DNA of 64,000 nt, taken from positions 11,842-75,841 of the forward strand of contig CAZMYW010000019.1 in NCBI GenBank assembly GCA_964570625.1, in the 5' to 3' direction. The position numbers and the translations under genes are program-made. The first letter of the stretch is position 1. Every line of letters begins with the position of its first letter. Shown here piece by piece: positions 2,618 through 64,000 of this stretch. This stretch comes from an uncultured Nitrospirota bacterium (GTDB lineage: Bacteria > Nitrospirota > Nitrospiria > 2-01-FULL-66-17). The notes under the pieces are model-generated. The model worked only from the letters and a program-made list of their open reading frames with translations, searched no databases and was not told the DNA's origin.

Positions 2618-3853
2618 ATGACCCGTCGCGTCGTCATAACGGGGTTGGGCCTCATTACGCCTTTAGGCCTCACCGTGGAAGACACGTGGACGGCGCTCTG
2701 CGAGGGTCGTTCCGGCATCGGGCCGATCACACGCTTCGACACCACCGATTTCCCCGTCACCATTGCGGGCGAGGTCAAAGGGTTCGATCCCGCCAAGTAC
2801 GTCGAAAAAAAAGACGTCAAGAAGATGGACACGTTTATCCACTACGCCTGTGCAGCCGGACAGGCGGCGTTTGCCGACGCGGGCCTGCGGATGGAACTTG
2901 TCGGCCCGGAACGCGTGGGGGTGTACATCGGATCGGGCATCGGGGGGCTGCAGGCGATCGAAGAGTGGCACGACGTCTTGCGAGAAAAGGGACCCAAGCG
3001 CATTACGCCATTTTTTATCCCGATGTCCATCATCAACATGGCGTCGGGACAACTCGCGATCCTGCTCGGCGCCAAAGGCCCTAACTCTGCGGCAGTTACC
3101 GCGTGTGCCACCGGCAACCATTGCATCGGAGACGCGTTTCGTCTGGTCCAGCGCGGGGACGCCGACGTCATGATCGCAGGAGGCACTGAAGCCGCGATTA
3201 CCCCGCTCGGCGTGGCCGGCTTCGCGGCCTCGCGGGCGTTGTCCACGCGAAACGACGATCCCACCCACGCCTCCCGGCCTTTCGATCGGGACCGCGACGG
3301 ATTTGTCATCGGCGAGGGAGCCGGAGTCGTGGTGCTCGAGATCCTGGAGTCGGCCCGCCGGCGCAACGCCAACATCTACGCGGAGATCGTCGGGTACGGC
3401 GCCTCCGCGGACGCCTACCACATCACGGCTCCACCCGATGACGGTGAAGGCGCGGTGCGGTGTATGCGCACCGCCTTGAGCGACGCGGATACCAAACCCA
3501 ACGAGGTCGGGTATATCAACGCACACGCCACGTCGACCATGGCGGACGCCATCGAGACCCGCGCGATCAAGACGGTCTTCGGTTCCACGACCACGGTTGC
3601 GGTCAGTTCGACCAAATCCATGACCGGACACTTGTTGGGCGCGGCCGGCGGGATCGAAGCGGTCTTCTCCATTTTGGCGATCCAGCGGGAAATCCTGCCC
3701 CCGACCATCAATCTGGAACACCCCGACCCGGCATGCGATTTGGACTACGTGCCCAACACGGCGCGTCGCACGAGGGTGGAGGTCGCGATGTCCAACTCCT
3801 TCGGTTTTGGCGGGGTCAATGCGTGTCTGGTCTTCCGCCGCTTCAACGGCTAG
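2618..3853 (+). CDS. fabF: 3-oxoacyl-ACP synthase II (KAS II)
   Basis: 411 aa in the condensing-enzyme family (..ACATG.., [13 protein letters not shown] motifs), immediately after acpP. Confidence 0.9.
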
Positions 3854-9616: not shown

Positions 9617-9692
9617 GGGGGGTTAGCTCAGTTGGGAGAGCGGCTGGTTCGCAATCAGCAGGTCACCGGTTCGATCCCGGTACCCTCCACCA
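9617..9692 (+). tRNA. tRNA-Ala (anticodon CGC)
   Basis: Hand-folded to 76 nt. Acceptor GGGGGGT/ACCCTCC with the G3:U70 Ala identity pair. D-arm GCTC-AGTTGGGA-GAGC. Anticodon stem GCTGG/TCAGC, loop TTCGCAA. T-arm ACCGG-TTCGATC-CCGGT. Encoded CCA. Confidence 0.85.
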
Positions 9693-48660: not shown

Positions 48661-49830
48661 ATGCAGGCCATGCTCGAGCGTTCCGGACACTTGGCCATCC
48701 TGCAGCGCCTGCTCCGGCAGTTTCCGGTGGTGGGTTTGATCGGCGCGCGACAGGTCGGCAAGAGCACGCTCGCACGCGCGTTGGTCGAGCGGGCCGGCGG
48801 GCGAGCGGCGTTCTTCGATCTCGAGGACCCCCGAGCGCTGGCGCGTCTCGACGCGCCCATGCTCGCCCTTGAAGGGCTCAGGGGCTTGGTCGTGCTCGAC
48901 GAGATCCAGCGCCGGCCCGACCTCTTCCCGGCGCTGCGCGTGCTGGCGGACCGACCCCGTCGCCCCGCGCGCTTCCTTGTGCTCGGCAGTGCTTCGCCGC
49001 CGCTCTTGCGTCAGAGCTCCGAGACGCTCGCCGGGCGCATCGCCTACCACGAACTCTTCGGGTTCGATCTGTCCGAGGTCGGACCGCGGGCGCTCGAGCG
49101 GCTGTGGCTTCGAGGCGGGTTCCCGCTGTCGTTCACCGCCAGAACGGAGGCGGCAAGCTTCCTCTGGCGCCGACAATTCATCGCGACGTTCGTCGAGCGG
49201 GAGATTTCGGAGCTGGAGCTGCGTCTCTCGCCCGCCGTCATCGGGCGCTTCTGGAACATGCTCGCTCACTATCACGGGCAGACCTGGAACGCGGCCGAGC
49301 TCGCTCGGGCTTTCGGCGTGTCGGAGAAGACCGTGCGTAGCTATCTCGATTTTCTGGTCGCGACGTTCGTCGCGTTTCGCCTGCCTCCCTGGCACGAGAA
49401 CGTCGGCAAACGCGAGGTCAAGGCGCCCAAGGTTTACCTCTCCGACAGCGGGCTGCTGCATGCCATGTTCGGCGTGAGTACGCGCGATGATTTGCTCGGA
49501 CATCCGAAACGCGGCGCATCCTGGGAAGGCTTCGCGATCAGCCAGGTCATCAGCCGCCTCGGCGCCCATCCCCGGGAGTGCTTCTTCTGGGGTCTCCACT
49601 CCGGAGCGGAGCTCGACCTTCTGGTGATGCGCGGGCTGGTGCGCCTGGGCTTCGAGGTGAAACACACGGATGCACCCGAGGTGACGCCCTCGATGCGCTC
49701 CGCGCTCGACAACCTGCGACTGTCCCATCTCTACGTCATCCATGCGGGCAAAGAAACATTCTCGCTGGGACCGAAGATCACGGCATTGCCCCTCGGTCGC
49801 GTGTGGACGGACCTCGGCGAGATCAGGTGA
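48661..49830 (+). CDS. AAA+ ATPase with C-terminal DUF4143 (PD-(D/E)xK-like) domain, copy 1
   Basis: It has a Walker A GARQVGKST, Walker B VVLDEIQ, and ..KAPKVY.., GFEVKHTD (E-x-K). Confidence 0.75.
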   Translation: MQAMLERSGHLAILQRLLRQFPVVGLIGARQVGKSTLARALVERAGGRAAFFDLEDPRALARLDAPMLALEGLRGLVVLDEIQRRPDLFPALRVLADRPRRPARFLVLGSASPPLLRQSSETLAGRIAYHELFGFDLSEVGPRALERLWLRGGFPLSFTARTEAASFLWRRQFIATFVEREISELELRLSPAVIGRFWNMLAHYHGQTWNAAELARAFGVSEKTVRSYLDFLVATFVAFRLPPWHENVGKREVKAPKVYLSDSGLLHAMFGVSTRDDLLGHPKRGASWEGFAISQVISRLGAHPRECFFWGLHSGAELDLLVMRGLVRLGFEVKHTDAPEVTPSMRSALDNLRLSHLYVIHAGKETFSLGPKITALPLGRVWTDLGEIR

Positions 49831-49973: not shown

Positions 49974-50984
49974 TTACTGCTTTTCGAACGCGAACACGCG
50001 TTTCCAATCCGCCTTCATGTTCACGACCGTCCAGCCCTTCGCCTTCGCCTCGTCGAGCGCCTTGTCCAACTGCCCGACGGATGACGCGCGGTCGTACGCC
50101 CATTCGCGGTCGGCATCGGTGTGGTGGATCAGCCCCATAAAACGCGGCCCACTTCCCGCAGCCGTCCACTGCAGCATCTGCAGGTCACCGTCGGAGTTGC
50201 CGAAGGCCAAGATCGGACGCCGCCCGATGAACTTGTGGATGCCCACCGGCTTGCCGGCCTTGTCGTCGATGAAGTCGATCTCGGGCAGACGCATCAGCAC
50301 CGGCTTGCCGTCGCGTAGATCAAGCTTGGTCTTGATGCTGCTGCCGACCACCTGCTCGGGCGGGATGCCATACACTCTCTCCGTCCACGGCCGCATGAAC
50401 TCGATGCCGCCCCCGGACACGATGAAGGTCTTGAACCCGTTGGCCCGGAGATAGGCCAGCAGGTCAAGCATGGGCTGGTACACCATTTCGGTGTAACGGC
50501 GTTTGGTCTTCGGATGCCGGGCGATCATGATCCAGTCCGTGACAGCCTGCTCGAACTCCTGAGTGGTCATGCCCGCGTGCGTGGCCATCACGATTTCGAG
50601 GATCGCTCGTTCACCACCCGCAAGCGCGCCTTTCACGTCGCCTTTCAGCAGCGAGGCGAACGGCTCCTTGTCCTTCCACTCCGGGTGTTGCGGCGCGAGC
50701 GCCTTGACCCGGTCGAGCGCGAACGCGAGCTGAAAATACATGGGCTGTTCGGCCCAGAGCGTGCCGTCGTTGTCGAAAACCGCGATGCGTTCGGCAGGCG
50801 GGACGAAGTCCGGCGAGCCGTCCTTGGTCACCTTCGCAACGAATTGAGTGACGGCCTTCTTGGCCGCCCCGTCGTTCCACGAGGGAAGCGGATCGGCCGT
50901 CTGCGCGTGTGCAGTCGTCGCAACGGCGCCCATCAGCATGTACGCGAGGGCGGCGATGAGGTTTCGCGTACGGGTGGTTTTCAT
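49974..50984 (-). CDS. HAD-superfamily hydrolase (HAD-IB/PSP-like phosphatase), secreted
   Basis: It has motif I VFDNDGTLW, a C-terminal GNSDGDLQML motif and the signal peptide MKTTRTRNLIAALAYMLMGAVATTAHA (shared module). Confidence 0.65.
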   Translation of the reverse strand: MKTTRTRNLIAALAYMLMGAVATTAHAQTADPLPSWNDGAAKKAVTQFVAKVTKDGSPDFVPPAERIAVFDNDGTLWAEQPMYFQLAFALDRVKALAPQHPEWKDKEPFASLLKGDVKGALAGGERAILEIVMATHAGMTTQEFEQAVTDWIMIARHPKTKRRYTEMVYQPMLDLLAYLRANGFKTFIVSGGGIEFMRPWTERVYGIPPEQVVGSSIKTKLDLRDGKPVLMRLPEIDFIDDKAGKPVGIHKFIGRRPILAFGNSDGDLQMLQWTAAGSGPRFMGLIHHTDADREWAYDRASSVGQLDKALDEAKAKGWTVVNMKADWKRVFAFEKQ

Positions 50985-51203
50985 CGTTGTGTCCTCTCGG
51001 GGTTGGTTGTTACTCGGTTTCTTCGTGCACTTTTTTCCAATCGGTGTTTCATTGCTCCCGATCATGGTGGGGGAATATGCCTTGAAAAGTCGGTGGGATC
51101 AACCGAGTTTTCAAGGTCCAATTTCGACCGAATATGGCATGTCGTTACCCCCACCGCACGCGAAGGCGAGCGCGACGGCGTCGAAGCATGGCCCTGACCG
51201 TCG

Positions 51204-51929
51204 CTACTCTTTCAGCTTGATCGGCTTCACGCGAATGACACCCGCGGTGACGGTGGCTGACACGCCTGCGTCGGTGATGAAATGGACCGAATATCCCTTA
51301 TCCGTTCCAACGTCACCGCTCCCCGCGCCGCCCGCAGCACCTGTCTCTCCAACCTTGGCGGCCGCTTCTGCGCCGGCCTGCGCCTCCCATTCACCCTTGA
51401 TAAAATGCTTGAACTTCTTTTCATCCTGAAAGATCAACACAGGCCGTACGCTTCTCGCTCCCCAGCCTCCACCGATATCGAACCGCTCCATTTTGATGTA
51501 GGTCTTTTCTTCGGTCTTCGTCTCGATCGCCACGCCGTATCCGCTGCCTGCTCCGACAACCGGGATCTTCGTGATCTTGTTGTTCATGATCGCGTAGCCA
51601 ACGGACCTCTCTATCGCTTCCTTGGTCTTCGGTTCCTGCGTGTACAAGTCGGACAGCGTTCGCTCGACCAGCTCGTCGATCGTTTGCTCCTGCTCCGCGC
51701 CTGTTTTGCCGGGCACGCCGGCACAGCCGAACATGCCGACGACAAGGAACCACAGGCTAAAACCGGTCAGTGCGGTTGATCTCAGGTACAGCCTCCTCTG
51801 AGTGGGCGTTAAAGCCGGCACACCCACAAGCGCAGCGGCGATGAGGTCATACTTGTGTGCGGTTTTCACCGTTGTGTCCTTTCGCCAACGAGCGGTGGCG
51901 ATGAGATTTTGTGTGCAGGCGATTTTCAT
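51204..51929 (-). CDS. hypothetical lipoprotein (Gly-rich; SYLF/Ysc84-like?)
   Basis: The 5' end carries a tandem duplicated signal-peptide module; the second start is GTG 51870, [19 protein letters not shown]. It has a lipobox FGCAG. Confidence 0.45.
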
Positions 51930-52357
51930 CGTTGTATCCTTTCGGTGATGTTTCGTGACCTACTTTCCACCGCTCGCATTTCCCGCTCGTTCCGAAGGCC
52001 CGCCATGCACCAAACGGCCATCGCCGCGTGAAGGACCACGGCCGGCCAGAGGCCGATGCCGGAGAGCCCCAAGCCGGTGCCGGTATAACCGAGCACCGCG
52101 ACGGCGCCGGTGTTGTAGAGCAACATGGCCGCGACCAATCCTCCCGCTACGCGGTTCTGCGCGTCGTTGCGCGCCAGCCAGCAGGCGAGTGCCAGCGCCA
52201 GCAGCGCCGCGCCGGCCAACCGGGCCACCACCAAGCCGCCGGGCGTGTCGAGAGATGTACCGAGCAGCACCGACGCCATCACCGATGGCGCGATCATCAG
52301 CCCCAGGCCGGCGCCCAGCTCAATCAGGGCCGTCACGATGAGCAGCGTTCTCATCAC
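51926..52357 (-). CDS. small 4-TM membrane protein (paralog of 53434..53883)
   Basis: 143 aa, hydrophobic. Its stop overlaps the next start (ATGA). Confidence 0.5.
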
Positions 52358-52502
52358 ATCATACTCAACCTATCGCCCCGTGCCCCTCGAACATCTCGAA
52401 CTTCGGGAGGCACTCAATGGTCATCCTGTGAATTCCAACGGACACTTCCCTTGCCAATTGCCAAATCTCAAGCTTCTTATAGCTCATCACCCACCCTCAT
52501 TC

Positions 52503-52655
52503 GGGATTCGTGATCCGGGATGCGAGATTCGCGATCCGAGATTCGAGATTTGCAGTGCTTGATCCGAGATGCGTGATTCGCGATTCGGAATATCTCGCAT
52601 CCCGCATCCCGTTTCTCGCATCTCGCAACTCGCATCCCGTATCTCGTATCTCGAC
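52503..52655. repeat. ~150-bp imperfect palindrome built from ~11 tandem 7-bp units per arm (GAT[T/C/G]CGN ... NCG[C/T]ATC)
   Basis: Left arm: gattcgt gatccgg gatgcga gattcgc gatccga gattcga ... gatccga gatgcgt gattcgc gattcgg. Right arm: cgcatcc cgcatcc cgtttct cgcatct cgcaact cgcatcc cgtatct cgtatct. It lies immediately 3' of gene 52658..53437. Confidence 0.7.
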
Positions 52656-52657
52656 AG

Positions 52658-53437
52658 TTACTTTGTGAGGGTCAACGGCTGCGTCAACGTCACGTCCGCC
52701 ACCGTACCGGCAGGAACCTTGAGGTTATTTCCTGGTCCCAGCAGCCCCACGCCGGCGCCGATCATGGCCCCTTTGCCGGCGCCAGACCCCCCGTCAACAG
52801 CTCCCCCGATGAGCGCGCCGGCAGCGGCTTTCCGAACAACCTTGCCCCCCTCGCTCTCAGCGCCGATGTGGCCGGTCGCGATCGGCACGAGCTGGTCGTT
52901 GATACTCAAATCGGTGAAGGTCATCATGATCGCCGCCTTGCCGACGCGCCTTCCGCCGATTGATTCCGTCACCGTGCCGAATACCTTGGTCCCCTTGGAG
53001 ACGATGACTGATCCGCCGCTCGCGAGATCGGTGTCCAAGACGCCGGTCACCCGGCTCCCCTTCTTGTGCGACGCCGTGCTCACGTCATGATCCAGCTTGA
53101 CCATGAGCCGCGTGCCCACCGGCAATGTCCCTGCCGCAGTCTGCGCCCCCGGAGCAGGGGTAGGCGCCGCGGGGGCTGGCGCCGATGCGGCGCGAGGCGA
53201 GTTGAAGGTGACGGACATGATGTCGGTGATGGCATAGGTCTGAACCACGCCCCCAGCCTCGACGACGACCGTCGCGTCGTTTCCGCCCTTGAACAATCCC
53301 TGCACGACCCGGCCGTCCTTGAGCATGATGGTATCGGCGCCGGCGGGTCCGGCTGCGAACAGCACTGCGACCAGACCGGTTTGCACAATAGTCCTGATTC
53401 TTTTCCTGTCATAAGCTCCGAGAGAGAACCGGTTCAT
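52658..53437 (-). CDS. hypothetical secreted protein (Gly/Ala-rich C-terminal half)
   Basis: It has a signal peptide and a [11 protein letters not shown] linker. Its start overlaps the upstream gene's stop. Confidence 0.45.
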
Positions 53438-53883
53438 GGCTGTGCTCCTTTCATGTGGTTCATTCGGTCGCGTTCACCCGCGTGCCGAAGGCACGCAACG
53501 CACCAGCCGGCCATCGCCGCGTGAAGAAGTACTGCCGGCCAAAGACCGACGCCGGAGAGTCCCAAATCTAGACCTGCAAAACCGAGGACCGCAACAGCGG
53601 CCGCGTTATAGAACAGCATGGCCGCGACCAGCCCCATGGTTGCGCGGCTCTGTGGGTCGTTACGCGCCAGCCAGCAGGCGATGCCCAGCGAGAGCAGCGC
53701 CGCCCCCGCCACACGGGCCACCACCACTCCGGGCGTGTCGAGCGATGTGCCGAGCAGCACCGGCGCCAGCACCGACGGTGCGATCACGAGCCCCAGGCCG
53801 GCTCCCAGCTCAATCACTGCGGTCGCGATGAGTAGCGTCCTCACGGGAATATCTGTTTCCAGTCTTGCTTCATATCCCACCAC
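53434..53883 (-). CDS. small 4-TM membrane protein (paralog of 51926..52357)
   Basis: About 70% aa identity to the 51926 ORF (..[32 protein letters not shown]..). Confidence 0.5.
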
Positions 53884-53913
53884 GGTCCCGGCGTTCGCCG
53901 TCGCTTCGCGCGA

Positions 53914-54207
53914 CTATTGGGCCGGAATGGTGATCAAGGGCAGCTTCTCGTTGCCGCCGGTGTCCGCCAGCGTGAAGAAAAACATGATCGCTGTCATCGC
54001 GCGCTTCGTTTGCCGGGCTTGAGCCGCTCCGGCTCCTTCCGCCACTACATCGGGGAATCCTGGACCGTCGGTCCGGCGACGCTGGCGGAGGGCGTTGGCG
54101 GAAAGGGCAACACGGAGCCGTCGTCGGCTGCCTGAGCTACGTCCGCTGTGAGCCAGCACGCAAGCGAGCGCGGCGGCGATGAGGATCGGCGTGTGGGTGG
54201 TTGTCAT
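53914..54207 (-). pseudogene. chimeric gene remnant: shared signal-peptide module + unrelated Arg-rich middle + last 33 codons of the 57009..58133 lipoprotein gene
   Basis: The C-terminal KRAMTAIMFFFTLADTGGNEKLPLITIPAQ is identical to the 57009 gene's C-terminus. About 100 nt are near-identical, including the downstream non-coding region. Confidence 0.6.
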
Positions 54208-54243
54208 GGTTCTGACCTTTCGGTGGTTGGCAGGATTTTCCCA

Positions 54244-55398
54244 TTAGGAGACTCCACGAAGGTGTTTTATCTTTTCAAAATCACATATTGAAATGACCTG
54301 AATGCGTTCACCCAAGTCATAATTTTCTTTCCCAGGGTAAATAACGAATAATTTTTCTAACTTTAAATCATGCACGGCAATTCGCATGGATGGTGTGAGG
54401 CTTGGACGATCACTGAGCTTGATCTCAAAGCCAATTTTTCTTCCATTCTTAAGAAAGAGAAGATCCAATTCCGCCCGATTATGGGTTGCCCAAAAATAGG
54501 CGGCATCCGGTTGTACCTGTTTGAATAAGTCCTCAATCACATATCCCTCCCAGGACATCCCGCGCTTCGAATGATCTCTAAAGTCTTTCTCGTTTTGAAT
54601 TCCAAGCAGCAAGTGTAAAAGTCCTGAATCACGGACATACACCTTGGGCGCCTTCACCTGTCGTTTGCCAAGATTTTCGTGCCATGGCTGAAGCTGACGC
54701 ACCATCAAAAGATGATCCAGATAATCCAGATATTTTCGTACCGTCGGCTGGCTCACTCCGAGCGATGACGCGGGATCAGCCGCGTTCCACATCTGACCAT
54801 GGCTGTGAGCCAGCATCGTCCAAAATCGGCGGAACATTGGCGCCGGTATGTTGAGTCCCATCTGTGGGACATCCCGCTCAAGAAACGTTTGAACAAATTC
54901 CTTACGCCAGGCGTAACTGATTGCATTGGTGCCGGCAAGAAATGACTGTGGAAATCCCCCACGGAACCAATGTGTTTTTAGTTTGCGATGCGTCGCCTCT
55001 TTGAGCGAAAAACCGCTCATGAAAATCGTTTCAACCCTTCCGGCAAGGGACTCGGACGACTGTTTTAAAAGCGCCGGACTTGCACTGCCTAAAATTAAAA
55101 ACTTGGCAGGCAATGGTTTGCGGTCTGAAAGCACGCGCAATAATGGGAACAGCTCCGGTTTACGATGAATTTCATCAATCACGACAAGTCCGCGAAGCCC
55201 CGCGAGCTCCGATTTGGCGTCTTCAAGACGCACCAAATCATCCGTGTCTTCCAAATCAAAATAATTCTTCTTCTCCGCAGATAAAAACTGCCGAGCAAGG
55301 GTTGTTTTGCCGCATTGACGCGGCCCCAGCAACACCACAACTCGGCTACGCTGAATCGCTTTTTGAACGTGTTCGATCAATTGTGGCCGTTTAATCAC
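54244..55398 (-). CDS. AAA+ ATPase with DUF4143 domain, copy 2 (low-GC, probably horizontally acquired)
   Basis: It has a Walker A GPRQCGKTT, Walker B VVIDEIH, KAPKVY and GFEIKLSD. Local GC is visibly about 45-48% against about 62% in the flanks. Confidence 0.75.
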   Translation of the reverse strand: MIKRPQLIEHVQKAIQRSRVVVLLGPRQCGKTTLARQFLSAEKKNYFDLEDTDDLVRLEDAKSELAGLRGLVVIDEIHRKPELFPLLRVLSDRKPLPAKFLILGSASPALLKQSSESLAGRVETIFMSGFSLKEATHRKLKTHWFRGGFPQSFLAGTNAISYAWRKEFVQTFLERDVPQMGLNIPAPMFRRFWTMLAHSHGQMWNAADPASSLGVSQPTVRKYLDYLDHLLMVRQLQPWHENLGKRQVKAPKVYVRDSGLLHLLLGIQNEKDFRDHSKRGMSWEGYVIEDLFKQVQPDAAYFWATHNRAELDLLFLKNGRKIGFEIKLSDRPSLTPSMRIAVHDLKLEKLFVIYPGKENYDLGERIQVISICDFEKIKHLRGVS

Positions 55399-55704
55399 GA
55401 CGGGAGTGTACCATGAAATATGAAACTATATATTTCAATTTTCATTATGTAATTTCACGGACCTGAAACAGCCCCGATCAGAAATCAAACCCCAATGCCA
55501 AATTCAGGCGGACATCATTTTTCTTCGGCACCACGCCGTCGGCCCCCGGGTTGTGGATATGCGGTGCGATCCCAGATTAACGACATGTCGAAATCGAACA
55601 CCCGGGTCAAGGCGGTCAACGCGAAGTTCCCAATCAGCAGAACCGCAGCGAGGCTCGCACGGGTCTTCGTGACATTCGGCAGTTCTTCGCCCTGGCCACC
55701 GCGA

Positions 55705-56895
55705 TCAGAACAATAGGACCTTGATCAGGTAGTCCACGACCTTCTCGAGCGGAACCATCGTCAGCGTGAGCGGCAGCAACGGCGCGGCCGTCACCACGGC
55801 GAGCCGCAGCACCACCTCTTTCCCGAACGGCACCCGCCGCATCTCGCGCACCACCGCGTAGCTGTTCCCGAGGTCGGCCAGCGACTGGATATCGCTGCTG
55901 CCCAACAGGCCCTCGTCCTTCGGCGCGCCTCCGCGGATCCACTTCGCCTCGAATTCCCGCACGTACCGGTTGACCAGCGAGCCGTACTCGCGCCGGCCCT
56001 GCCGCCACGCGCGCGTGAGGTGCGGCGTGAACAGGACAAGCGGGCTGAGGATGACCAGCACGAAGAAGGACACAAAGGCGACGATGTCGAGCTTGAAGGC
56101 CAACAGGCTCTGTCCCTCGAAAAAAATCCGGTTGGCGATCATCCCGGCGAGCAGGACGCCGTGGGCGAACAGGATTGCCTCAAAGGCGTAGGCGGTGTTG
56201 TCCAGAAACCCCATTCCACCGGTTCGATCCGCGTGGGTCGGTACGAGGTGCAGGTTCAATCGCGAAACGCGCCACACAAACCATATCCAGACGAAGAACC
56301 GCAGATACCACTGAAAGAAGATGAACTGAAAAAGCGGAATGCTCACAAAGACGTACCAGGACCCGGCGAGCGTCAGGGTGAGGCCCGCGCCCTCCGGGTG
56401 TGCAGACCAGGTCGCGGAATCAAGCGCGACTTGGGTTCTCCACAGCCACTGTCCCACCGTATAGACGAATACCGCCAACCCGCTTTGCACGATGACCGAG
56501 TTGACCACCCGCATGACCGAGTCGATCGCCGCGCGGAACGCCGGTCGATCTTCGGGAATCACGATGCCCCGGTCCACGAGCTGGTGGACCACGGATTGGA
56601 GCCGATTATGGGAGATCCGATCGGCGATGATCAGCACCGGCAGTGCAAGCAGATATCGGAGGTGCGCCTCGAAGTCGTACAGGAACGGAACCGTGATGGA
56701 GCCGCCCAGCGCGTGACCTTCGAGCGCCGACAGCAGCAGCAGCGGTAGCCACGCGATCAGGGCAATAAGTGCGACTCGTCGCCCCGCACGCCCTAGTTGG
56801 GGATCGGCGACCCCCGTCCGCAGGCACAGCCGATAGAGCGGCCCCTGCACCAGCGAGAACTCGGGCAACTCCTGGGAAGGCTCAGGATGAGTCAT
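55705..56895 (-). CDS. hypothetical polytopic membrane protein
   Basis: It has about 8 TM helices. Its start lies 3 nt downstream of the 57009 gene, so they are probably co-transcribed. Confidence 0.45.
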   Translation of the reverse strand: MTHPEPSQELPEFSLVQGPLYRLCLRTGVADPQLGRAGRRVALIALIAWLPLLLLSALEGHALGGSITVPFLYDFEAHLRYLLALPVLIIADRISHNRLQSVVHQLVDRGIVIPEDRPAFRAAIDSVMRVVNSVIVQSGLAVFVYTVGQWLWRTQVALDSATWSAHPEGAGLTLTLAGSWYVFVSIPLFQFIFFQWYLRFFVWIWFVWRVSRLNLHLVPTHADRTGGMGFLDNTAYAFEAILFAHGVLLAGMIANRIFFEGQSLLAFKLDIVAFVSFFVLVILSPLVLFTPHLTRAWRQGRREYGSLVNRYVREFEAKWIRGGAPKDEGLLGSSDIQSLADLGNSYAVVREMRRVPFGKEVVLRLAVVTAAPLLPLTLTMVPLEKVVDYLIKVLLF

Positions 56896-57008
56896 TCGCG
56901 GCTCCACACACGGTAGGTGATATCGTCCATCATTGATGCAGGTGCCCCCAGGGTCCCGCCTTTCACCGTCGCTTCGCTCGGCACATTCATCTGGTGTGGT
57001 TCGCACGC

Positions 57009-58133
57009 CTATTGCGCCGGAATGGTGATCAAGGGCAGCTTCTCGTTGCCGCCGGTATCCGCCAGCGTGAAGAAAAACATGATCGCCGTCATCGCGCGTT
57101 TCGTTTTCCAGTCGCCGTCATCGATCCAGAACCAATAGTCGCGGTAATACACAGCGGCAAACGCGTCTACCGGCTTGTCCTTTCCGCTGTGAATTCGCAC
57201 CACGTCCCGCCGGGTCTCCGCGGAGGCGTTTTCGAAGTTGGGCAGCGCGCGGTGGGCCTTCAGGTGCGCCTCGGGCACGTCCAGATAGCTGGCGAACGCT
57301 CCCATGATTTGTAGCATCGAGCGGCTGTTGACAGCCAGTTCGCCCTCCGCCCCACGCCCCGGCGAATAGGTGAGCACGAACTTTTGCCCCTCGGCGGGCA
57401 TCTTGAGCAACCGCCGGACTTCTGCCGCCTTTTCCAGGATGTCGGCGGGCACGTCCTCACGCCGGAAGAACACGACGCCGGTTGAGCCTTTGGCCTTGTC
57501 CTCCTCCACGCGCATCCCGACAGCGCCAGCGGCCTGCACCTCGCGCAGCAATTCCAGCGCGCGCACAAACTCCGGGTCCGCCTCCCGCACCGCGCCGCCC
57601 GTCGTCGAACGATTGCGCACCCCGTTGAGCGACTCGACGGTCAGGCCCAGAATGAAGTTCGCCGGGTAACCCGATTGCAGCATAAAGAAAATGTTCTTCG
57701 GATCAATCGGCGTGATCAACCCGCGCAAAAACTTTTCCCCGGTCATCGGCACGTAGGTGATGGTGGGCCGGTCGGTGTAGATGGCCTGCGCCCCCGCCGA
57801 CATAAAATTGCCCTGGATCGCATTTTTGGACGAGACGGTGCCGCCGACGTTCACGCCGGTCTGCAACGAGTAGCCGGCGACGATGGACGCCACGTCCACA
57901 AACACCGGCAGGTCCATGTAGCGCAGCTTGACGATGTTCAGCAGCGTCTGCTGTTTCCACGAATCGGCGATGGCCGTGCTGTAGTCGAAACGGTCCACCG
58001 TCATGGTCTTGGGACCGAGGTGCGTGCAGCCGGCGAACAGCGCCGCCGCGAGACACAGGCTCAGTTTCGTTGCAGCGAGGCCATGGAAGCGGCGCGCGTC
58101 GGCCAGGAGGTTTGGTGTGCGTGTGGTTTTCAT
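57009..58133 (-). CDS. hypothetical lipoprotein
   Basis: It has the shared module MKTTRTPN.. and a lipobox LFAGC. It is about 375 aa. Confidence 0.5.
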   Translation of the reverse strand: MKTTRTPNLLADARRFHGLAATKLSLCLAAALFAGCTHLGPKTMTVDRFDYSTAIADSWKQQTLLNIVKLRYMDLPVFVDVASIVAGYSLQTGVNVGGTVSSKNAIQGNFMSAGAQAIYTDRPTITYVPMTGEKFLRGLITPIDPKNIFFMLQSGYPANFILGLTVESLNGVRNRSTTGGAVREADPEFVRALELLREVQAAGAVGMRVEEDKAKGSTGVVFFRREDVPADILEKAAEVRRLLKMPAEGQKFVLTYSPGRGAEGELAVNSRSMLQIMGAFASYLDVPEAHLKAHRALPNFENASAETRRDVVRIHSGKDKPVDAFAAVYYRDYWFWIDDGDWKTKRAMTAIMFFFTLADTGGNEKLPLITIPAQ

Positions 58134-58170
58134 GGTTGTGTCCATTCAGTTGTTGATTGGTTTGGCCATT

Positions 58171-59589
58171 TCACTTCGGCGGAGTGTAAGGATCAGGCGT
58201 GCCCATCGGAATGAGCGGATACTTTTTCACGCTCTGCTCGAACGCGCCCACGATTTTCAGAACCGGACCAACCACCCACGAATCCGCCGTTGGCTTCTCT
58301 TCGCGCGGATCGGTGTAGAGGTTGTAAATGGTCGGCGTAGGGTTCTTGACCGGCGGATCGAACATGGTGTCCTGGCGCATGAAATGCAATTTCCAGTTAC
58401 GCCACTTCACTGCTTGCAAACGTTCTGCTCCCCAGACTGGGAAACCTTCCCGCGCCGACTTTTCGGTCTTGCCGAGGAAAAAGGCAGACTGATCAATGCT
58501 GTCGAACGGCCGATCCATGGGTACTTTGGCACCGCTGAATCTGGCGAGTGTCGCAAATAAATCCACGCCATGCACAATCTCGTTGCTTACGCGTTCGGCG
58601 GCGATCTTACCGGGCCAGCGAATCAGGAAGGGCACGCGAATGCCGCCCTCGAGTGCGGTGAAATACGCGCCACGCCAAGGGCCGGCCCAACCGTCCCAAG
58701 GCTTGAGGAATTAGGCCCCATTGTCGCTGGTGAAGATGAAGATCGTGTTGTCGCGCACGTTCGCCTTGTCTACCGCGTCGAGAATCTGGCCGACGTTGGC
58801 ATCCATTTCGGCAAGCATGTCCGCCCAGTCCCCGTTGCCGGTCTTGCCGGCGAAGGCAGGATTCGGCAGTGTGGGCAAGTGCGGCTGAGTAAGCGCCACA
58901 TAGGCGAAGAACGGCTTGCCGGACTTGGCCCCCCGCTCGATGAACGCGACCGAGCGCCGGGTGATTTCCGCATCAATGAGTCGCCGCTGCACCACATCGT
59001 AAATTCCCAACTCGCGGCTCTTCTCGCTCTTCTTGCCTTCCATCATGTGTTCCGCCGGCATAATGTCGGAGGACCATCCGGGCGAAGTTGGCCAGAGCGA
59101 TTCATCCGTCGTGCGCGGGATGCCGAACCACTCGTCGAAACCCTGGTCGTTGGGCAACCGTCCGTCGTGACTGCCGAGATGCCACTTACCGTAGTAGCCG
59201 GTCGCGTAGCCCGCGTCCGACAGCGCCTCGCCGATGGTCACTTCCCACTGCGTGAGGCCGTCGGCCACACCGCCAAACGGCACGGAATGGGTGCCCGAGC
59301 GGATCGCCCACCGGCCGGTCATCAGGCTGGAACGGCTCGGCGTGCACTGCGTCTCCATGTTCATGTTCAGCAGGCGTAGGCCCTCTTTGGCGAGACTGTC
59401 AATGCGCGGGGTGGCTGCGCCGCGTGTGAGTCCCCCGCCGTAACTGCCGATTTCGCCGTATCCAAGATTGTCGGTCAGGATGAAGACGATGTTGGGTTTG
59501 TCCGCTGCGTGGGCAGCGGTCGAGGTGATGAACGCCAGCACGCCAACGAGCGCGGCGGCGATGAGGCTTTGGTCGTTTTTGGTTTTCAT
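58171..59589 (-). pseudogene. arylsulfatase gene interrupted by a single in-frame TAA (plus-strand TTA at 58711..58713)
   Basis: The N-terminal ORF 58711..59589 carries the CTPSRSSLMTGR formylglycine motif. The C-terminal ORF 58171..58635 is in the same frame. The frame reads ..FTSDNGA*FLKPWDGW.. whereas the intact paralog reads ..FTSDNGGEFVKPWDGW... Confidence 0.7.
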
Positions 59590-59677
59590 GGTTGTGTCCT
59601 TATCAGTGATTGATTGGTTTGTTCACTTCACCTTTTCGATGTCCGGTGGCGGCCAGCGCGTTGTCGCACCACGGCGT

Positions 59678-60919
59678 TCATAGCTGTGACCACGGCAGGG
59701 CAGTCACCCGGTCGGTGAGCGCCAGCGGGGCAGAGCAGCGGCAAATGACGTAGCCGTGCCGGGCACGTTTCGGGTGTTCGTCCAGAAACGTCAGCAGATG
59801 TCGCGCGTCGCCGGACGTAGGGTGCTCGGTCCATTTCACTTCGATGGGAATGAGCCGGCCGGCGCGGGCAATGATGAAATCCACTTCCGCGCCCGCCTTG
59901 GTGCGCAGGTAATGCAGTTTGCCGCCGCCCAGATATTGCAGACGTTTCCACAACTCAATGCCCACCCATTGCTCAAACACGGGTCCGGGATTCGCTCGGA
60001 TCGCGGCGGCTTCCAACGGCAAATCGGCAGCGGCATTGCGAACGCCGACGTCGAAAAAGCAAAACCGCTCCGTGGACAGCAGGCTCTTGCGCGGACTCCC
60101 AGAAAATGCCGTCACCCGAAACCCGAGGAACATGTCTTCGAGCAACTGATAGTAGGTCTTCACCGTCGGCAGGCTGACCCCGGCCTCGCGGGAAATCCCG
60201 GCGTAGTTGATCATCCGGCCGGACTCGGCGGCGGCCAGTTGCAGGAACCGGGAGAAGGCCGGCCAGTTTTTCACCAGCGCCTCGCGCCGCAGCTCCTCCT
60301 CCAGATACACCACCGTGTAGGCGCGCAAGAGATCGGCGCGATGAGCATGAGTGGCGGTCGCCACGCCGGGCAGCTCGCCAAATGTGAGCCGCTCGAACAA
60401 GTCGGCGGCGGCGAACCGACGCTCATCCACCGCCCCGCGCGCGGGCATCGGCAACGGCGACTCGGCCCGCATCTTCCCGGCGCCGGCCGGCGGGCGCTCC
60501 GCCAGCAGCAGCGGATACAAATGATGCAGGAAACTGCGCCCCGGCAGCAGGTTCGCGCCCGTCACGCGTAGCTTGCGGGCGGAACTGCCACACAACACAA
60601 AACGCCACCGACGCTTGTCGGAATCGTAGAGATGCTGCACCGCGTCGAAGATCGCCGGCACGTTTTGCGCCTCGTCCACCACGACCGTCGCGGGGCGTCG
60701 CGATTTCGGCAGCGCCCGGCACCGCTGGACGAGCAGATCGGGGTTGCGCAGGTATTCGGCGCGTTCGGCGGGCCGGGAGAAATCCAGCCAGACCGGCGGC
60801 TCCGGCAGCAGTTTGTGCAGCAACGTGGACTTGCCGGTCTGGCGCGCACCGAACACGAGATGCACGTATGGCGCGGCAAGTTTCTTCTTCCACAGCGGTT
60901 CGACCCAGCGACCAAACAT
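59678..60919 (-). CDS. AAA+ ATPase with DUF4143 domain, copy 3 (divergent subfamily)
   Basis: It has a Walker A GARQTGKST, Walker B VVVDEAQ and ..DFIIARAGRLIPIEVKWTE (D..E-x-K). Confidence 0.7.
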   Translation of the reverse strand: MFGRWVEPLWKKKLAAPYVHLVFGARQTGKSTLLHKLLPEPPVWLDFSRPAERAEYLRNPDLLVQRCRALPKSRRPATVVVDEAQNVPAIFDAVQHLYDSDKRRWRFVLCGSSARKLRVTGANLLPGRSFLHHLYPLLLAERPPAGAGKMRAESPLPMPARGAVDERRFAAADLFERLTFGELPGVATATHAHRADLLRAYTVVYLEEELRREALVKNWPAFSRFLQLAAAESGRMINYAGISREAGVSLPTVKTYYQLLEDMFLGFRVTAFSGSPRKSLLSTERFCFFDVGVRNAAADLPLEAAAIRANPGPVFEQWVGIELWKRLQYLGGGKLHYLRTKAGAEVDFIIARAGRLIPIEVKWTEHPTSGDARHLLTFLDEHPKRARHGYVICRCSAPLALTDRVTALPWSQL

Positions 60920-60980
60920 ATTGCCTGCTTTATAAACGCCCGACTATTCTAATGTCAACAATCTGATCGGTCCGCTCGCT

Positions 60981-61052
60981 TTAGACGACAAGGAGCGCCA
61001 ACGCGCCAACGAGCGCGGCGGCGAGGAGGGTTGGTCTGACCGTGGCTTTCAT
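60981..61052 (-). other. orphan copy of the shared RBS+signal-peptide module encoding only MKATVRPTLLAAALVGALALLVV*
   Basis: ggaggaaacagacATGAAAGCCACG..CTCCTCGCCGCCGCGCTCGTTGGCGCGTTGGCG is followed by a stop. It lies between ATPase 3 and the 61079 gene. Confidence 0.5.
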
Positions 61053-61078
61053 GTCTGTTTCCTCCGCTTCAGACTGAT

Positions 61079-61894
61079 TCACTTCGGGAACAGAAACGTG
61101 ACGCCGGCGCGAAGGCCGAGACCCTCCGGCCCGTTGTCCGGCGACTCGACCCAGTACCGCGCGCCCGCAAAAACCTGGAGGATCTGCGGGCCGACTTTCA
61201 GCAACTGCGACACCGTCGCATTCACCGGCACCGACCATTGGTCGTTCTCCCAGTCGTAGGTGGACTCCGTGTTGAGACCGAGAGTGGTTTTGGTCTTCGT
61301 GATGTAGGAGATAAACGGCTGTACGAAACTCAGGCTGATGTCTGCGCGGTCATCCTGGCCCGTGAGCGACCAGATCTGATTGGCCAACAGGCCGTAGGTC
61401 CAGCCGTTCTTCTGTTGCAGCGCCAGCACCGTCGGCCCCGCGCCCCACTTGCCGCCGCCGAGCACGTCGTCGGACGCCGTGGGATAGAGTCCCACCGGGC
61501 CGACCGCCAGAATCCACCCGCCGACCGGTTGCTTGGGAGAGAAGAAGAAACTCTGCACGATGTCGCCCAGGCCCGACTCACTGGAGCCCGGGGGCACGTT
61601 ATCGGCGTTCACCAACGGCACAATCGTCCGCGTGATGAGGTTCCAATCCTCGTTCAGCGAAAACGGCCAGACCGGCTGGACATTCAGCACGGACTTGGAT
61701 CCTTCATCGTTCGGGCCGATGTTCTCGTCGTAGTTGTACTGTAACGGCACGCTGATGAGCGCCGCCACCGGGTTCGCCAGTTTCTTCGCCAGCTCCGCCG
61801 CCTCGTCCCCCTCCTGCGCCTCTGCACCGGCGGCGACGGCCAGCACGCCAACGAGCGCGGCGGCGATGAGGTATTTTATGCGTTTGGTTTTCAT
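61079..61894 (-). CDS. exported/outer-membrane protein, hypothetical
   Basis: It has the shared module [26 protein letters not shown] and a C-terminal ..GVTFLFPK. The track ORF is extended to 62059. Confidence 0.5.
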   Translation of the reverse strand: MKTKRIKYLIAAALVGVLAVAAGAEAQEGDEAAELAKKLANPVAALISVPLQYNYDENIGPNDEGSKSVLNVQPVWPFSLNEDWNLITRTIVPLVNADNVPPGSSESGLGDIVQSFFFSPKQPVGGWILAVGPVGLYPTASDDVLGGGKWGAGPTVLALQQKNGWTYGLLANQIWSLTGQDDRADISLSFVQPFISYITKTKTTLGLNTESTYDWENDQWSVPVNATVSQLLKVGPQILQVFAGARYWVESPDNGPEGLGLRAGVTFLFPK

Positions 61895-61922
61895 GGTTGT
61901 GACTTCTCCTTGGTCGATTGTT

Positions 61923-62444
61923 TCAAAATGCAGCGACGCGTTGGATGACCCAGAACATGGCGACACTGCCGATGGCATACGGAGGAATGCGCCAGGCCCA
62001 CGCCGGCTGGAAGAAGTCGGTGAACATCCCGATGACGTTCGGCGGGGCATACACGACAAGTGGCCCGGTTTCCTTGAGGTCGAGGTAACTCATCGAGTAA
62101 ATCACGTCGCAGTTCGGCGTGGGTACCCAGGTCTTGGCGTTCATCCGGTCTTTCCAGATCGGCAGCACGTTGTAGCCTTTGCCGAACTTCGCCTCCGAGC
62201 CGTCGCGCATGCCGATGGTATTCAAGATGGGCAGCGTCTGCATGTAAGCCTCTATGCCCCGCTGCTGGAGGCGCTCTTGATTCAACTGCTCGACGGCCGC
62301 CCGATCCGGCCAGGTGCCGTTATACATTTGCTTCACGAGCGGTGGCATGTCGCCTTGCGCCTGCACAACGGTGGTTGTGAAAGCCAGTGCGCTGACGAGC
62401 GCGGTGACGAGGAGAGTTTTTGTTTTCATTTTTGTGATTTTCAT
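61923..62444 (-). CDS. DUF1254-like secreted protein (short; possibly truncated)
   Basis: It has a signal MKITKMKTKTLLVTALVSALAF and YNVLPIWKD..KTWVPTPNCDVIYSMSYLDLKETGPLVVYAPP. Confidence 0.4.
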   Translation of the reverse strand: MKITKMKTKTLLVTALVSALAFTTTVVQAQGDMPPLVKQMYNGTWPDRAAVEQLNQERLQQRGIEAYMQTLPILNTIGMRDGSEAKFGKGYNVLPIWKDRMNAKTWVPTPNCDVIYSMSYLDLKETGPLVVYAPPNVIGMFTDFFQPAWAWRIPPYAIGSVAMFWVIQRVAAF

Positions 62445-62504
62445 TGTTGTCTCCTGTCTTTGGTTGATTGGTTTGGTCATTTCACTTTCACTCGGTTTGC
62501 ACAT

Positions 62505-63929
62505 TCACTTCGGCGGCGTGTAAGGGTCCGGCGTGCCCATCGGGATGAGCGGATTGTCTTTCATGGTCGCATTGAACGCGCCCACTATTTTCAACATCGG
62601 AGTCACCACCCAAGTATCCACGGTCGGCTTCTCCTCGCGCGGGTCGGTGTAGAGGTTGATGATGAAGGGAATCCCAAGCTTCACCGGCGGATCGTACATC
62701 GTGTCCTGCCGGTAGAAGTGCAACTTCCAGTTGCGCCACTTCACGGCGGTCAGGCGGTCCGCGCACCAGATGGGGAAACCCTCGCGGGCCGACTTCTCGG
62801 ATTTGCCAAGCAGGAAATCGGACTGATCCACGCTGTCCATGGGCCGATCGTTGGGCACCTTGGCGCCGCCAATCCTCGCGAGTGTCGCGAACATGTCCAC
62901 GCCATACACGATCTCGTTGCTGACGCGCCCGGCGGGCACCTTCCCCGGCCAGCGGATCATGAACGGCACGCGAATCCCGCCTTCCAGCGCGGTGAAATAC
63001 TGGCCCCGCCACGGACCCGACCAGCCGTCCCACGGCTTGACGAATTCCCCGCCGTTATCGCTGGTGAAAACCACGATGGTATTGTCGGCGATGCTGAGTT
63101 TGTCCACGGCATCAAGCATCTGCCCGACGTTGCTGTCCATCTCGGCCAGCATGTCCGCCCAATCGCCGTTGCCCGTCTTGCCTTTGAAAGCCGGGTTCGG
63201 TTCGGTGGGCAGATGCGGCTGGGTCAGGGATGCATACATGAAGAACGGCTTGCCCGCCTTGGCCTGCCGCTCCATGAACGCCACCGAGCGCTTGGTGATT
63301 TCGGCATCGATGAGCCGGCGCTGAACGATGTCGTAGTCCTTCAAGGCAACACTCTTCCCGCCTTTTTTGCCCTCCATGATCTTTTCCAGCGGCACAATGT
63401 CCGGCGAGTAGCCAACCGAGGATGACCACAACGCCTCATCCGTCGTGCGCGGGATGCCGTACCACTCGTCGAAACCCTGATCGTTCGGCAGACGGCCATC
63501 GTGGCTGCCAAGATGCCACTTGCCGTGCAACGCCGTGGCGTAACCGGCCGCAGAAAGTGCCTCAGCCACCGTAACTTCCCATTGGGTCAAGCCTTCGGGC
63601 ACGCCACCAAATGGAACCGCATAGGTGCCGGAGCGGATGGCAAAGCGGCCGGTCATGAGACTGGAGCGGCTCGGCGTGCATTGCGTCTCCATGTTCATGT
63701 TCGTGAGGCGCAGTCCTTCACTGGCGAGCTTGTCGATGCGCGGCGTAGGCGCTCCCCGCGTGGCTCCGCCGCCGTAGACGCCCAATTCGCCATAGCCCAG
63801 GTTATCCGCCAGGATGAAGAGGATGTTGGGTTGCTTGTCCGCTGCTTGGGCCGGAGCGAGGATGCCGAATACTGCCAGCGCGCAAACGAGCGCGGCGGCG
63901 ATAAAAATTCGGGTATGGAGGGTTTTCAT
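62505..63929 (-). CDS. arylsulfatase (formylglycine-dependent), intact paralog
   Basis: 474 aa with CTPSRSSLMTGR, GKWHLG and the shared signal module MKTLHTRIFIAAALVCALA. Confidence 0.85.
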   Translation of the reverse strand: MKTLHTRIFIAAALVCALAVFGILAPAQAADKQPNILFILADNLGYGELGVYGGGATRGAPTPRIDKLASEGLRLTNMNMETQCTPSRSSLMTGRFAIRSGTYAVPFGGVPEGLTQWEVTVAEALSAAGYATALHGKWHLGSHDGRLPNDQGFDEWYGIPRTTDEALWSSSVGYSPDIVPLEKIMEGKKGGKSVALKDYDIVQRRLIDAEITKRSVAFMERQAKAGKPFFMYASLTQPHLPTEPNPAFKGKTGNGDWADMLAEMDSNVGQMLDAVDKLSIADNTIVVFTSDNGGEFVKPWDGWSGPWRGQYFTALEGGIRVPFMIRWPGKVPAGRVSNEIVYGVDMFATLARIGGAKVPNDRPMDSVDQSDFLLGKSEKSAREGFPIWCADRLTAVKWRNWKLHFYRQDTMYDPPVKLGIPFIINLYTDPREEKPTVDTWVVTPMLKIVGAFNATMKDNPLIPMGTPDPYTPPK

Positions 63930-64000
63930 CGTCGGACTCCTCAGTTAATTTCAAAAATCATCAGACCGCACCCGCCGATGCGACACCCCGCGGAAGGCTT

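Follow-up and report, generated by a model that had tools for sequence, protein, structure and literature searches.

The vlp/vsa genes of Mycoplasma, the mlp/erp genes of Borrelia (with their upstream homology box) and the staphylococcal tandem lipoprotein genes have a conserved 5' untranslated region (UTR) and signal-peptide region, which is used in recombination. In integrons, the repeated element is the attC site, an imperfect palindrome with R'' and R' cores (RYYYAAC ... GTTRRRY). The conservation of conotoxin signal sequences extends to silent sites. Cone-snail toxin superfamilies are outlined in PMC10561478 as combining a conserved signal sequence with a hypervariable mature toxin, and a passage of PMC8026896, citing Jomantiene 2007, describes the phytoplasma SVM signal (PF12113; sequence-variable mosaic proteins, for example SAP11 and SAP54) as one conserved signal-peptide motif that heads secreted proteins with different mature parts. 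Here we describe a leader found in 64,000 nucleotides of DNA from an uncultured Nitrospirota bacterium (GCA_964570625.1, contig CAZMYW010000019.1, positions 11,842 to 75,841), a stretch referred to below as the window. The leader carries a ribosome-binding site (RBS), a start codon and the beginning of a signal peptide, and it stands in front of unrelated gene bodies. We propose that it is probably a portable module for translation start and for the n- and h-regions of a Sec-type signal peptide, which doubles as recombination homology and thereby shuffles gene bodies. A literature search for this leader found no description of it.

The leader resembles the SVM signal in having a conserved signal motif with differing mature parts, in regions shaped by repeated recombination or transposition. 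However, SVM signals belong to the small effectors and potential mobile units of wall-less, AT-rich plant pathogens, whereas the present leader is found in diderm soil bacteria on enzymes, porins and lipoproteins, and its block extends over the RBS and, in some copies, the entire intercistronic spacer. PF12113 had no match in Pfam scans of 16 leader-bearing or neighbouring proteins. As in conotoxins, the signal is far more conserved than the mature part; unlike in these eukaryotic families, whose mature parts evolve fast but are homologous within a superfamily, the folds that follow here are unrelated. The likeness to integron arrays lies in co-oriented, mostly promoterless genes parted by a repeat, in variable content with toxin-antitoxin and defence-type genes and in repeat-bounded cassettes. 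In contrast to attC, the repeat here is located 5', inside the reading frame, and encodes the RBS, the ATG and the signal peptide; there is no attC-type palindrome or GTTRRRY core, no integrase was seen, and any exchange would be homology driven. The vlp/vsa, mlp/erp and tandem lipoprotein genes likewise have a conserved 5' region common to many genes, but their mature parts are related or repetitive and serve antigenic or phase variation, whereas unrelated enzymes and porins follow the present leader and no sign of switching was seen. What is new relative to the known cases is the diderm soil lineage, the inclusion of the RBS and spacer, the unrelated enzyme and porin folds, the silent-site conservation and the breakpoints at the edges of the block.

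The block spans ~70 nt, from about -14 to +56 relative to the start codon, and comprises a Shine-Dalgarno region (AAAGGACACAAC), the start codon and the first 19 codons of the signal peptide (MKTTRTQNLLAAALVGALA). The consensus of 66 canonical copies, from the window and from related loci (given L numbers), is GAAAGGACACAAC-N-ATG AAA ACC ACA CGC ACA CAA AAC CTC CTC GCC GCC GCG CTC GTT GGC GCG CTG GC. In these copies the information content goes up at about -13; at the other edge, position +56 still has 1.1 bits and position +57 has 0.0. A profile search of the window with nhmmer revealed 10 leader copies (E = 1e-6 to 9e-19). They all cluster on the minus strand in one co-oriented island of about 13-14 kb (50.9-64 kb), where they are carried by ten genes or gene remnants (Table 1); in the remaining 51 kb the best match reached only E = 0.65. 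A 22-nt pattern covering the RBS and ATG, with up to 3 mismatches, was matched 7 times in the window and not once in 100 dinucleotide shuffles. Inspection of the sequences confirmed that the starts listed in an earlier note on this DNA are all present on the minus strand, with minor amendments. The GTG start placed at 51870 is at 51869, and the ATGs at 62444 and 62429, both of which exist, belong to a single copy with a 15-nt internal duplication and are not the starts of separate copies. The spacing within the shared block, which that note gave as 12 to 15 nt, is fixed at 15 nt. Upstream, a C/A-rich spacer of ~45 nt, (G)TGAARTGAMCAAACCAATCAAYCA, which reaches back to the preceding stop codon, is conserved in window copies 62444, 59589 and 58133 and in many related loci. 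Some leaders have a longer, different upstream element (L002, 260-357, 1900-2003 and 2830-2932; L041, 12300-12400 and 13400-13480), in which a purine-rich stretch (..TTCAACAGAAACAAACCGAGATCACAGAGAAG..) and a pyrimidine-rich one (..CTCCGCTCCTTCCGCTCCCTCCTGTTCAA) could form the two arms of a long imperfect stem. The upstream end ..CTCCTGTTCAA was observed in 10 of 88 distinct leaders.

In the window, the bodies behind the leader are a HAD hydrolase, an intact and a disrupted sulfatase, a DUF1254 fragment, an outer-membrane-type protein of 271 amino acids (aa), a 374-aa lipoprotein, a SYLF lipoprotein, a 23-aa orphan and a chimera. When 54 related loci were compared, the mature parts fell into at least nine groups unconnected by BLASTP. 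Pfam analysis of leader-headed bodies in related loci revealed DUF1254 with DUF1214, a 344-aa Phenol_MetA_deg protein, an NHL-repeat lipoprotein and a metallophosphatase/5'-nucleotidase. The 344-aa protein is distinct from the 271-aa family, and the gene found at the place of the 271-aa protein in L055-L058 is assigned to PF13557 (Phenol_MetA_deg); there are thus two Phenol_MetA_deg outer-membrane types. In Sec-type signal peptides a positive n-region is followed by 10-15 hydrophobic residues (the h-region) and then by a c-region that contains A-x-A or a lipobox Cys. By inspection, the leader has the features of a Sec-type (I/II) signal peptide, namely, MK(T)xR/K.., then LLAAALVGALA, and then AHA before AD, AQA before AD or AEA before QE, or else ..GAGC or FAGC. 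The c-region is gene specific, with A-x-A in some genes and a lipobox Cys in others, and the shared part therefore consists of the n- and h-regions only. An NCBIfam scan gave no match to an N-terminal signal-type model. In the 374-aa lipoprotein family the n-region of the leader stands ahead of the protein's own lipoprotein signal, MKTTRTPNLLADARRFHGLAATKLSLCLAAALFAGC, and this N terminus looks like a graft of the leader n-region before the native lipobox signal. A further arrangement was noted in four related loci (L013:2744, L032:1575, L034:3520 and L048:1094), in which a leader stub of 24-31 aa is followed by a second copy of the spacer and then by an arylsulfatase with a different signal peptide of its own (MKRxILIILxLAFGL..). 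The stop codon of the stub adjoins the arylsulfatase start in all four, as if the stub were an unfused intermediate or a coupled upstream open reading frame (ORF).

In order to assess codon choice in the leader, 16,931 mature-region codons were taken as the background. Lys codon 2 was AAA in about 100% of cases, compared with 25% in the background, and at a Gln position left free in the search pattern, CAA was found 29 times and CAG once (CAA background, 26%). The Val codon of the leader is GTT, which accounts for 12% of the background, and three Ala codons and the next Leu codon were nearly always GCC GCC GCG CTC (background GCC, 43%; GCG, 42%; CTC, 36%). At Ala codon 19 all four codons are in use, and codon choice is free from there on. 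In homologous pairs, identical residues had the same codon at a rate of 0.79-0.90 in the leader versus 0.49-0.63 in the mature regions (family means), and the amino acid identity of the leader was independent of the divergence of the bodies. Most related loci were fetched by an exact DNA pattern; the controls were pattern-free positions, secondary copies and peptide-selected copies, and it was for this reason that a peptide-only profile was added, which in a 42-column form matched short proteins only. In this control GCC GCC GCG CTC was kept in 5 of 5 leaders (4 peptide hits and 1 neighbour in the same locus), for which chance is about 0.03 per copy, and the peptide-selected leaders showed scattered silent changes at their edges. 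Stubs were as close as fused leaders to the consensus outside the search pattern (UTR, 0.75 versus 0.64; free positions, 0.79 versus 0.78), which argues that the conservation is not tied to a working fusion.

Breakpoints of similarity were collected from all-against-all BLASTN between contigs (at least 80% identity over at least 300 nt). Among 154 distinct internal breakpoints, 24 were located at -30 to +10 of a leader ATG (2.0 expected) and 16 at +40 to +75 (2.1 expected), an excess of about 8- to 12-fold over chance at the two edges of the block. Individual comparisons revealed the same pattern. L038 and L045/L033 are alike over about 75 nt upstream and through the leader to +56, beyond which the bodies are unrelated. 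L001, L036/L027 and the window copy at 62444 have a sulfatase 3' end, spacer and leader in common and then diverge, and the two sulfatase regions of the window are similar through the spacer into the leader, after which one continues into the lipoprotein and the other into the DUF1254 gene (repeats D6 and D7). A unit of stub, ATPase and leader to +56 is common to window 61052..59533 and L024 207..1710, with differing flanks. In the tandem half-copy at 51929/51869, +48 is joined to -13. Products of this sort, among them the chimera at 54207, are frequent. Mini-genes from public data (P0031, P0294, P0324 and P0330), with which window 53914-54207 may be compared, consist of the leader and no more than 15-40 residues from each end of an outer-membrane or HAD gene, or else join the start of one family to the end of another; internal deletion with retention of both gene ends seems to be a recurrent outcome.

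These results bear out most of what the earlier note had suggested, that is, a leader conserved at the DNA level in front of unrelated mature domains through module shuffling or recombination onto different exported proteins. The codon choice against the background and the conserved 5' UTR place the similarity beyond what the peptide needs. The copies are not whole-gene paralogues, since similarity stops before the mature parts, which fall into unconnected groups and different Pfam families. Shuffling is supported by this number of unrelated families, by the other signal peptides on close homologues (see below), by the same upstream sequence and leader before different bodies and by the breakpoints; the comparison of points at which 5' similarity ends, which the note had recommended, showed that they pile up at the block edges.

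The note had also considered a leader kept by gene conversion, and here the outcome was mixed. Leader identity was 0.71-0.72 within a contig; between contigs it was 0.74 when the bodies belonged to one family and 0.75 when they did not. The similarity is therefore star-like around one consensus and not homogenized genome by genome. Local exceptions are L042 and L002, with within-contig identities of 0.93 and 0.90, and a GTG (Val) variant common to four window copies with unrelated bodies. Because leaders within a contig are no more alike than those between contigs, local conversion is sporadic and not general. General homogenization within genomes was rejected on these identities, and conversion fails as the sole cause of conservation between genomes.

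The 120 best homologues of the 271-aa protein, at 66-80% mature identity, carry diverse ordinary signal peptides, and only about 6 are leader-like. Judged from these sequences, the leader is lineage specific. The exact DNA pattern was found on 53 soil or sediment metagenome stretches, and a profile search gave 328 cluster representatives with the leader at E <= 1e-3. The sole match in a genome collection was a 1.6-kb contig (L001, CAZIFU010000092.1) binned as Verrucomicrobiota, and one leader peptide match (P0005) is labelled Anaerolineales; these labels may reflect mis-binned short contigs or a spread of the module across phyla. The FabF protein encoded at window 2618-3853 has 85-86% identity to proteins named from Nitrospirota/Nitrospiria metagenome-assembled genomes and 73% identity to those of Nitrospira and Manganitrophus. 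It points to Nitrospirota, which, given the disagreement of the labels, is the probable rather than the certain lineage.

In the explanation that we favour, the n- and h-regions of the module would serve as the start of an ordinary Sec-type signal peptide, and each gene would supply its own c-region, with an A-x-A signal-peptidase site or a lipobox; with the c-region supplied by the gene, the module would suit soluble, lipoprotein and outer-membrane cargo alike. Since many co-oriented neighbours carry nearly the same 70-100 nt, the module would also act as recombination homology. Exchange, deletion and duplication between copies, presumably by homology-driven recombination, would move gene bodies between arrays, including those of non-exported genes such as PDC-S01 ATPases, and would leave behind stubs, tandem half-copies and chimeras. 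Such exchange, possibly together with a function at the nucleotide level, would keep the copies alike across genomes.

That the nucleotide sequence itself is read, as a cis-acting RNA or DNA element that co-regulates exported hydrolases and porins (the target of a small RNA, an RNA- or DNA-binding protein, or a structured mRNA leader), would account for silent sites held across genomes with saturated-looking mature regions, for a star-like similarity independent of genome and gene family and for stubs as well conserved as fused leaders, but it leaves the edge breakpoints unexplained, and we consider it unlikely. A 10-bp GC hairpin is possible at +31..+56 in most copies, in which third codon positions pair with third codon positions. 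As a conserved structure it was not supported: pair breaks were one-sided and uncompensated, the share of paired cells (90.7%) did not differ from the mean of the shuffles, and a single double change was seen, in a covariation test of low power as the element varies little. Folding energies of the whole region were unremarkable (z-scores, -1.4 to +2.4), Rfam gave no match at the leaders, whether the island was scanned permissively or the window at the gathering threshold, and nhmmer detected no complementary or antisense copy of the leader in the window. Promoter and terminator scans gave sites no more numerous than in shuffles, and the genes look co-transcribed. In several copies an ORF is open on the antisense strand of the leader; it has no start and is conserved over only 23 codons, and it was treated as a by-product of high GC content.

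A small mobile element pasted in front of genes from a master copy, either transposon-like or as the site of a site-specific recombinase (integron or shufflon), is less probable still. Discrete block limits, the +48 to -13 junction of the tandem half-copy, the star-like similarity, and stubs before unrelated non-exported genes in co-oriented arrays with toxin-antitoxin and defence-candidate genes, as in integron arrays, are consistent with it. The ends of a transposon, miniature inverted-repeat transposable element or insertion sequence were nevertheless rejected, as terminal inverted repeats (8 of 20 terminal matches) and target-site duplications (flank word sharing, 3.37 nt versus 3.19 in controls; maximum, 6 nt) are both absent. 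No transposase or integrase was seen beside the examined arrays apart from a resolvase and an IS66 TnpB, both in L061; for the window, which reaches 71 nt beyond the last leader on its upstream side, the scan covered part of the ORFs. All leader copies, in the window and in each multi-copy locus, are direct repeats, which excludes inversion switching of the shufflon type. An attC-like site was rejected by inspection and folding: the leader's GTTGGCG does not fit the GTTRRRY core, the folds contain the local 10-bp hairpin but no long imperfect palindrome, and pairing between the C/A-rich 5' half and the 3' half is impossible. Moreover, the stub junctions are spread from about +50 to beyond the c-region and do not mark one site. 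Ordinary convergence of high-GC signal peptides, or recent whole-gene duplication, has almost nothing left in its favour, even though the h-region is rich in Ala and Leu as in any signal peptide and true paralogues exist (the two sulfatases and the 143/149-aa membrane proteins). It was refuted by the absence of the 22-nt pattern from shuffles, by leader codons that run against the background beside a conserved 5' UTR, by the different signal peptides of other exported proteins of the window and island, by bodies from unrelated Pfam families and by close homologues of the outer-membrane protein with other signal peptides.

Several points count against the portable module itself. Export, signal-peptide cleavage and recombination are all inferred from the sequence. 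Sampling by an exact DNA pattern biases the core positions, and mis-joins of short metagenome contigs at a ~60-nt repeat could inflate the breakpoint count; set against the latter concern, one stub-bearing arrangement recurs in four samples (L055-L058), and the window itself has stubs, chimeras and the pattern of same upstream sequence with different bodies. Ongoing local conversion is not general, identity within contigs being no higher, and unbiased conversion inside genomes should not fix silent sites between genomes whose mature silent sites look saturated. The constancy of the silent sites points either to exchange across the whole gene pool or to a nucleotide-level function. A wider reading of the module, which we advance tentatively as possible though doubtful, is that a homology-based gene-cassette system, with the module as its repeat unit, takes the role of an integron without an integrase. 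Arrays of the form [spacer-RBS-ATG-signal n/h region][body] would then swap their bodies (exported enzymes, porins, lipoproteins, defence-candidate ATPases and toxin-antitoxin pairs) through the module, both inside a genome and from one genome to another, and the sequence would stay constant as an expression and export adaptor and recombination site, or because it is also read by an RNA- or DNA-binding factor.

Table 1. Leader copies and associated genes of the window, from high to low coordinates
Feature	Coordinates	Strand	Basis
Leader module (-14..+56), ATG 63929, fused to intact sulfatase	63874..63943	-	nhmmer E = 1.4e-15
Sulfatase A, 474 aa, PF00884, intact	62505..63929	-	Pfam
Conserved spacer (GTGAAATGACCAAACCAATCAACC...) and variant leader, ATG 62444; 15-nt internal duplication gives second ATG 62429	62374..62487	-	nhmmer E = 1.3e-6; repeat families D1, D7
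DUF1254-type gene, truncated (173 aa; full-length relatives about 485-515 aa)	61923..62444	-	Pfam
Leader module, ATG 61894, top-scoring copy	61839..61908	-	nhmmer E = 9e-19
271-aa outer-membrane-type protein, itself without Pfam match	61079..61894	-	Relatives
Orphan leader, 23-aa stub, ATG 61052; ATPase gene next	60981..61066	-	nhmmer
ATPase, PDC-S01 match (candidate defence gene), flanked by two leaders	59678..60919	-	PADLOC
Conserved spacer and leader module, ATG 59589	59534..59633	-	nhmmer E = 6.4e-17; repeat D7
Sulfatase B, disrupted (ORFs 58711-59589 and 58171-58635); 75-80% nt identity to sulfatase A	58171..59589	-	Repeats D3, D4, D6
Conserved spacer and partial leader, ATG 58133; leader n-region ahead of the gene's own lipoprotein signal (..KLSLCLAAALFAGC)	58078..58176	-	nhmmer; orthologue L041:9316
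374-aa lipoprotein, no Pfam or NCBIfam match	57009..58133	-	
Second PDC-S01 ATPase, inside lowest-GC 2-kb bin of window (54001-56000, GC 0.53)	54244..55398	-	PADLOC
Leader module, ATG 54207	54152..54221	-	nhmmer E = 2.3e-17
Chimeric remnant headed by leader	53914..54207	-	Repeat D9
Tandem half-leader, ATG 51929; ends at +48, joined directly to -13 of next copy	51882..51943	-	nhmmer E = 5e-14
Leader module, GTG start 51869	51814..51883	-	Pattern and nhmmer
SYLF/BPSL1445-like lipoprotein, 221 aa	51204..51869	-	NCBIfam scan
Leader module, ATG 50984; 5' part kept, h-region diverged	50929..50998	-	nhmmer E = 2.3e-13
HAD-family hydrolase, 336 aa counted from leader ATG	49974..50984	-	Pfam/NCBIfam scans
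Third PDC-S01 ATPase, convergent, at low-coordinate edge of leader island	48661..49830	+	PADLOC

Further inspection of the chimeric remnant revealed in its middle a frame-shifted stretch resembling the start of the L032/L034 arylsulfatase bodies (AADDGSVLPFPPTPSASVAGPTVQDSP) and at its end the 3' end of a 374-aa lipoprotein paralogue (94% over 110 nt). Two membrane proteins of 143 aa (51926-52357) and 149 aa (53434-53883) on the minus strand are paralogues (78-85% nt identity; repeats D5 and D8) with no family match. They flank a 259-aa secreted Gly-zipper-like protein and, with repeats D9 and D10, mark a segment of the island as duplicated. Two neighbouring 25-nt direct repeats (window 52594-52646; CTCGCATCCCGCATCCCGTTTCTCG; 88% identical) lie 28 nt apart in the gap that follows the 259-aa gene on its downstream side. 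A tRNA gene at 9617-9689 on the plus strand was the sole Rfam match at gathering score in the whole window.

The leader-bearing regions are variable, and related loci hold toxin-antitoxin pairs and gene fragments. The three ATPases of the window match PDC-S01 of PADLOC at E = 2e-68 to 2e-84; a relative in L059 is listed as AAA_14+DUF4143. Two of five distinct ATPase types (window/L024 and L007/L016/L021) have a truncated leader stub immediately in front of them and are followed by the next full leader.

If the portable module is what it appears to be, it would represent a natural standard part for bacterial export, a fixed start and signal-peptide adaptor gained by unrelated proteins via recombination, which in turn would make the genes behind it exchangeable. 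This would offer a concrete route by which proteins gain or swap export signals, and it would provide a recognizable marker for a variable island of exported-protein and defence genes in an abundant uncultured soil lineage. It would also pose the puzzle of why the silent sites of a signal peptide stay fixed across diverged genomes.

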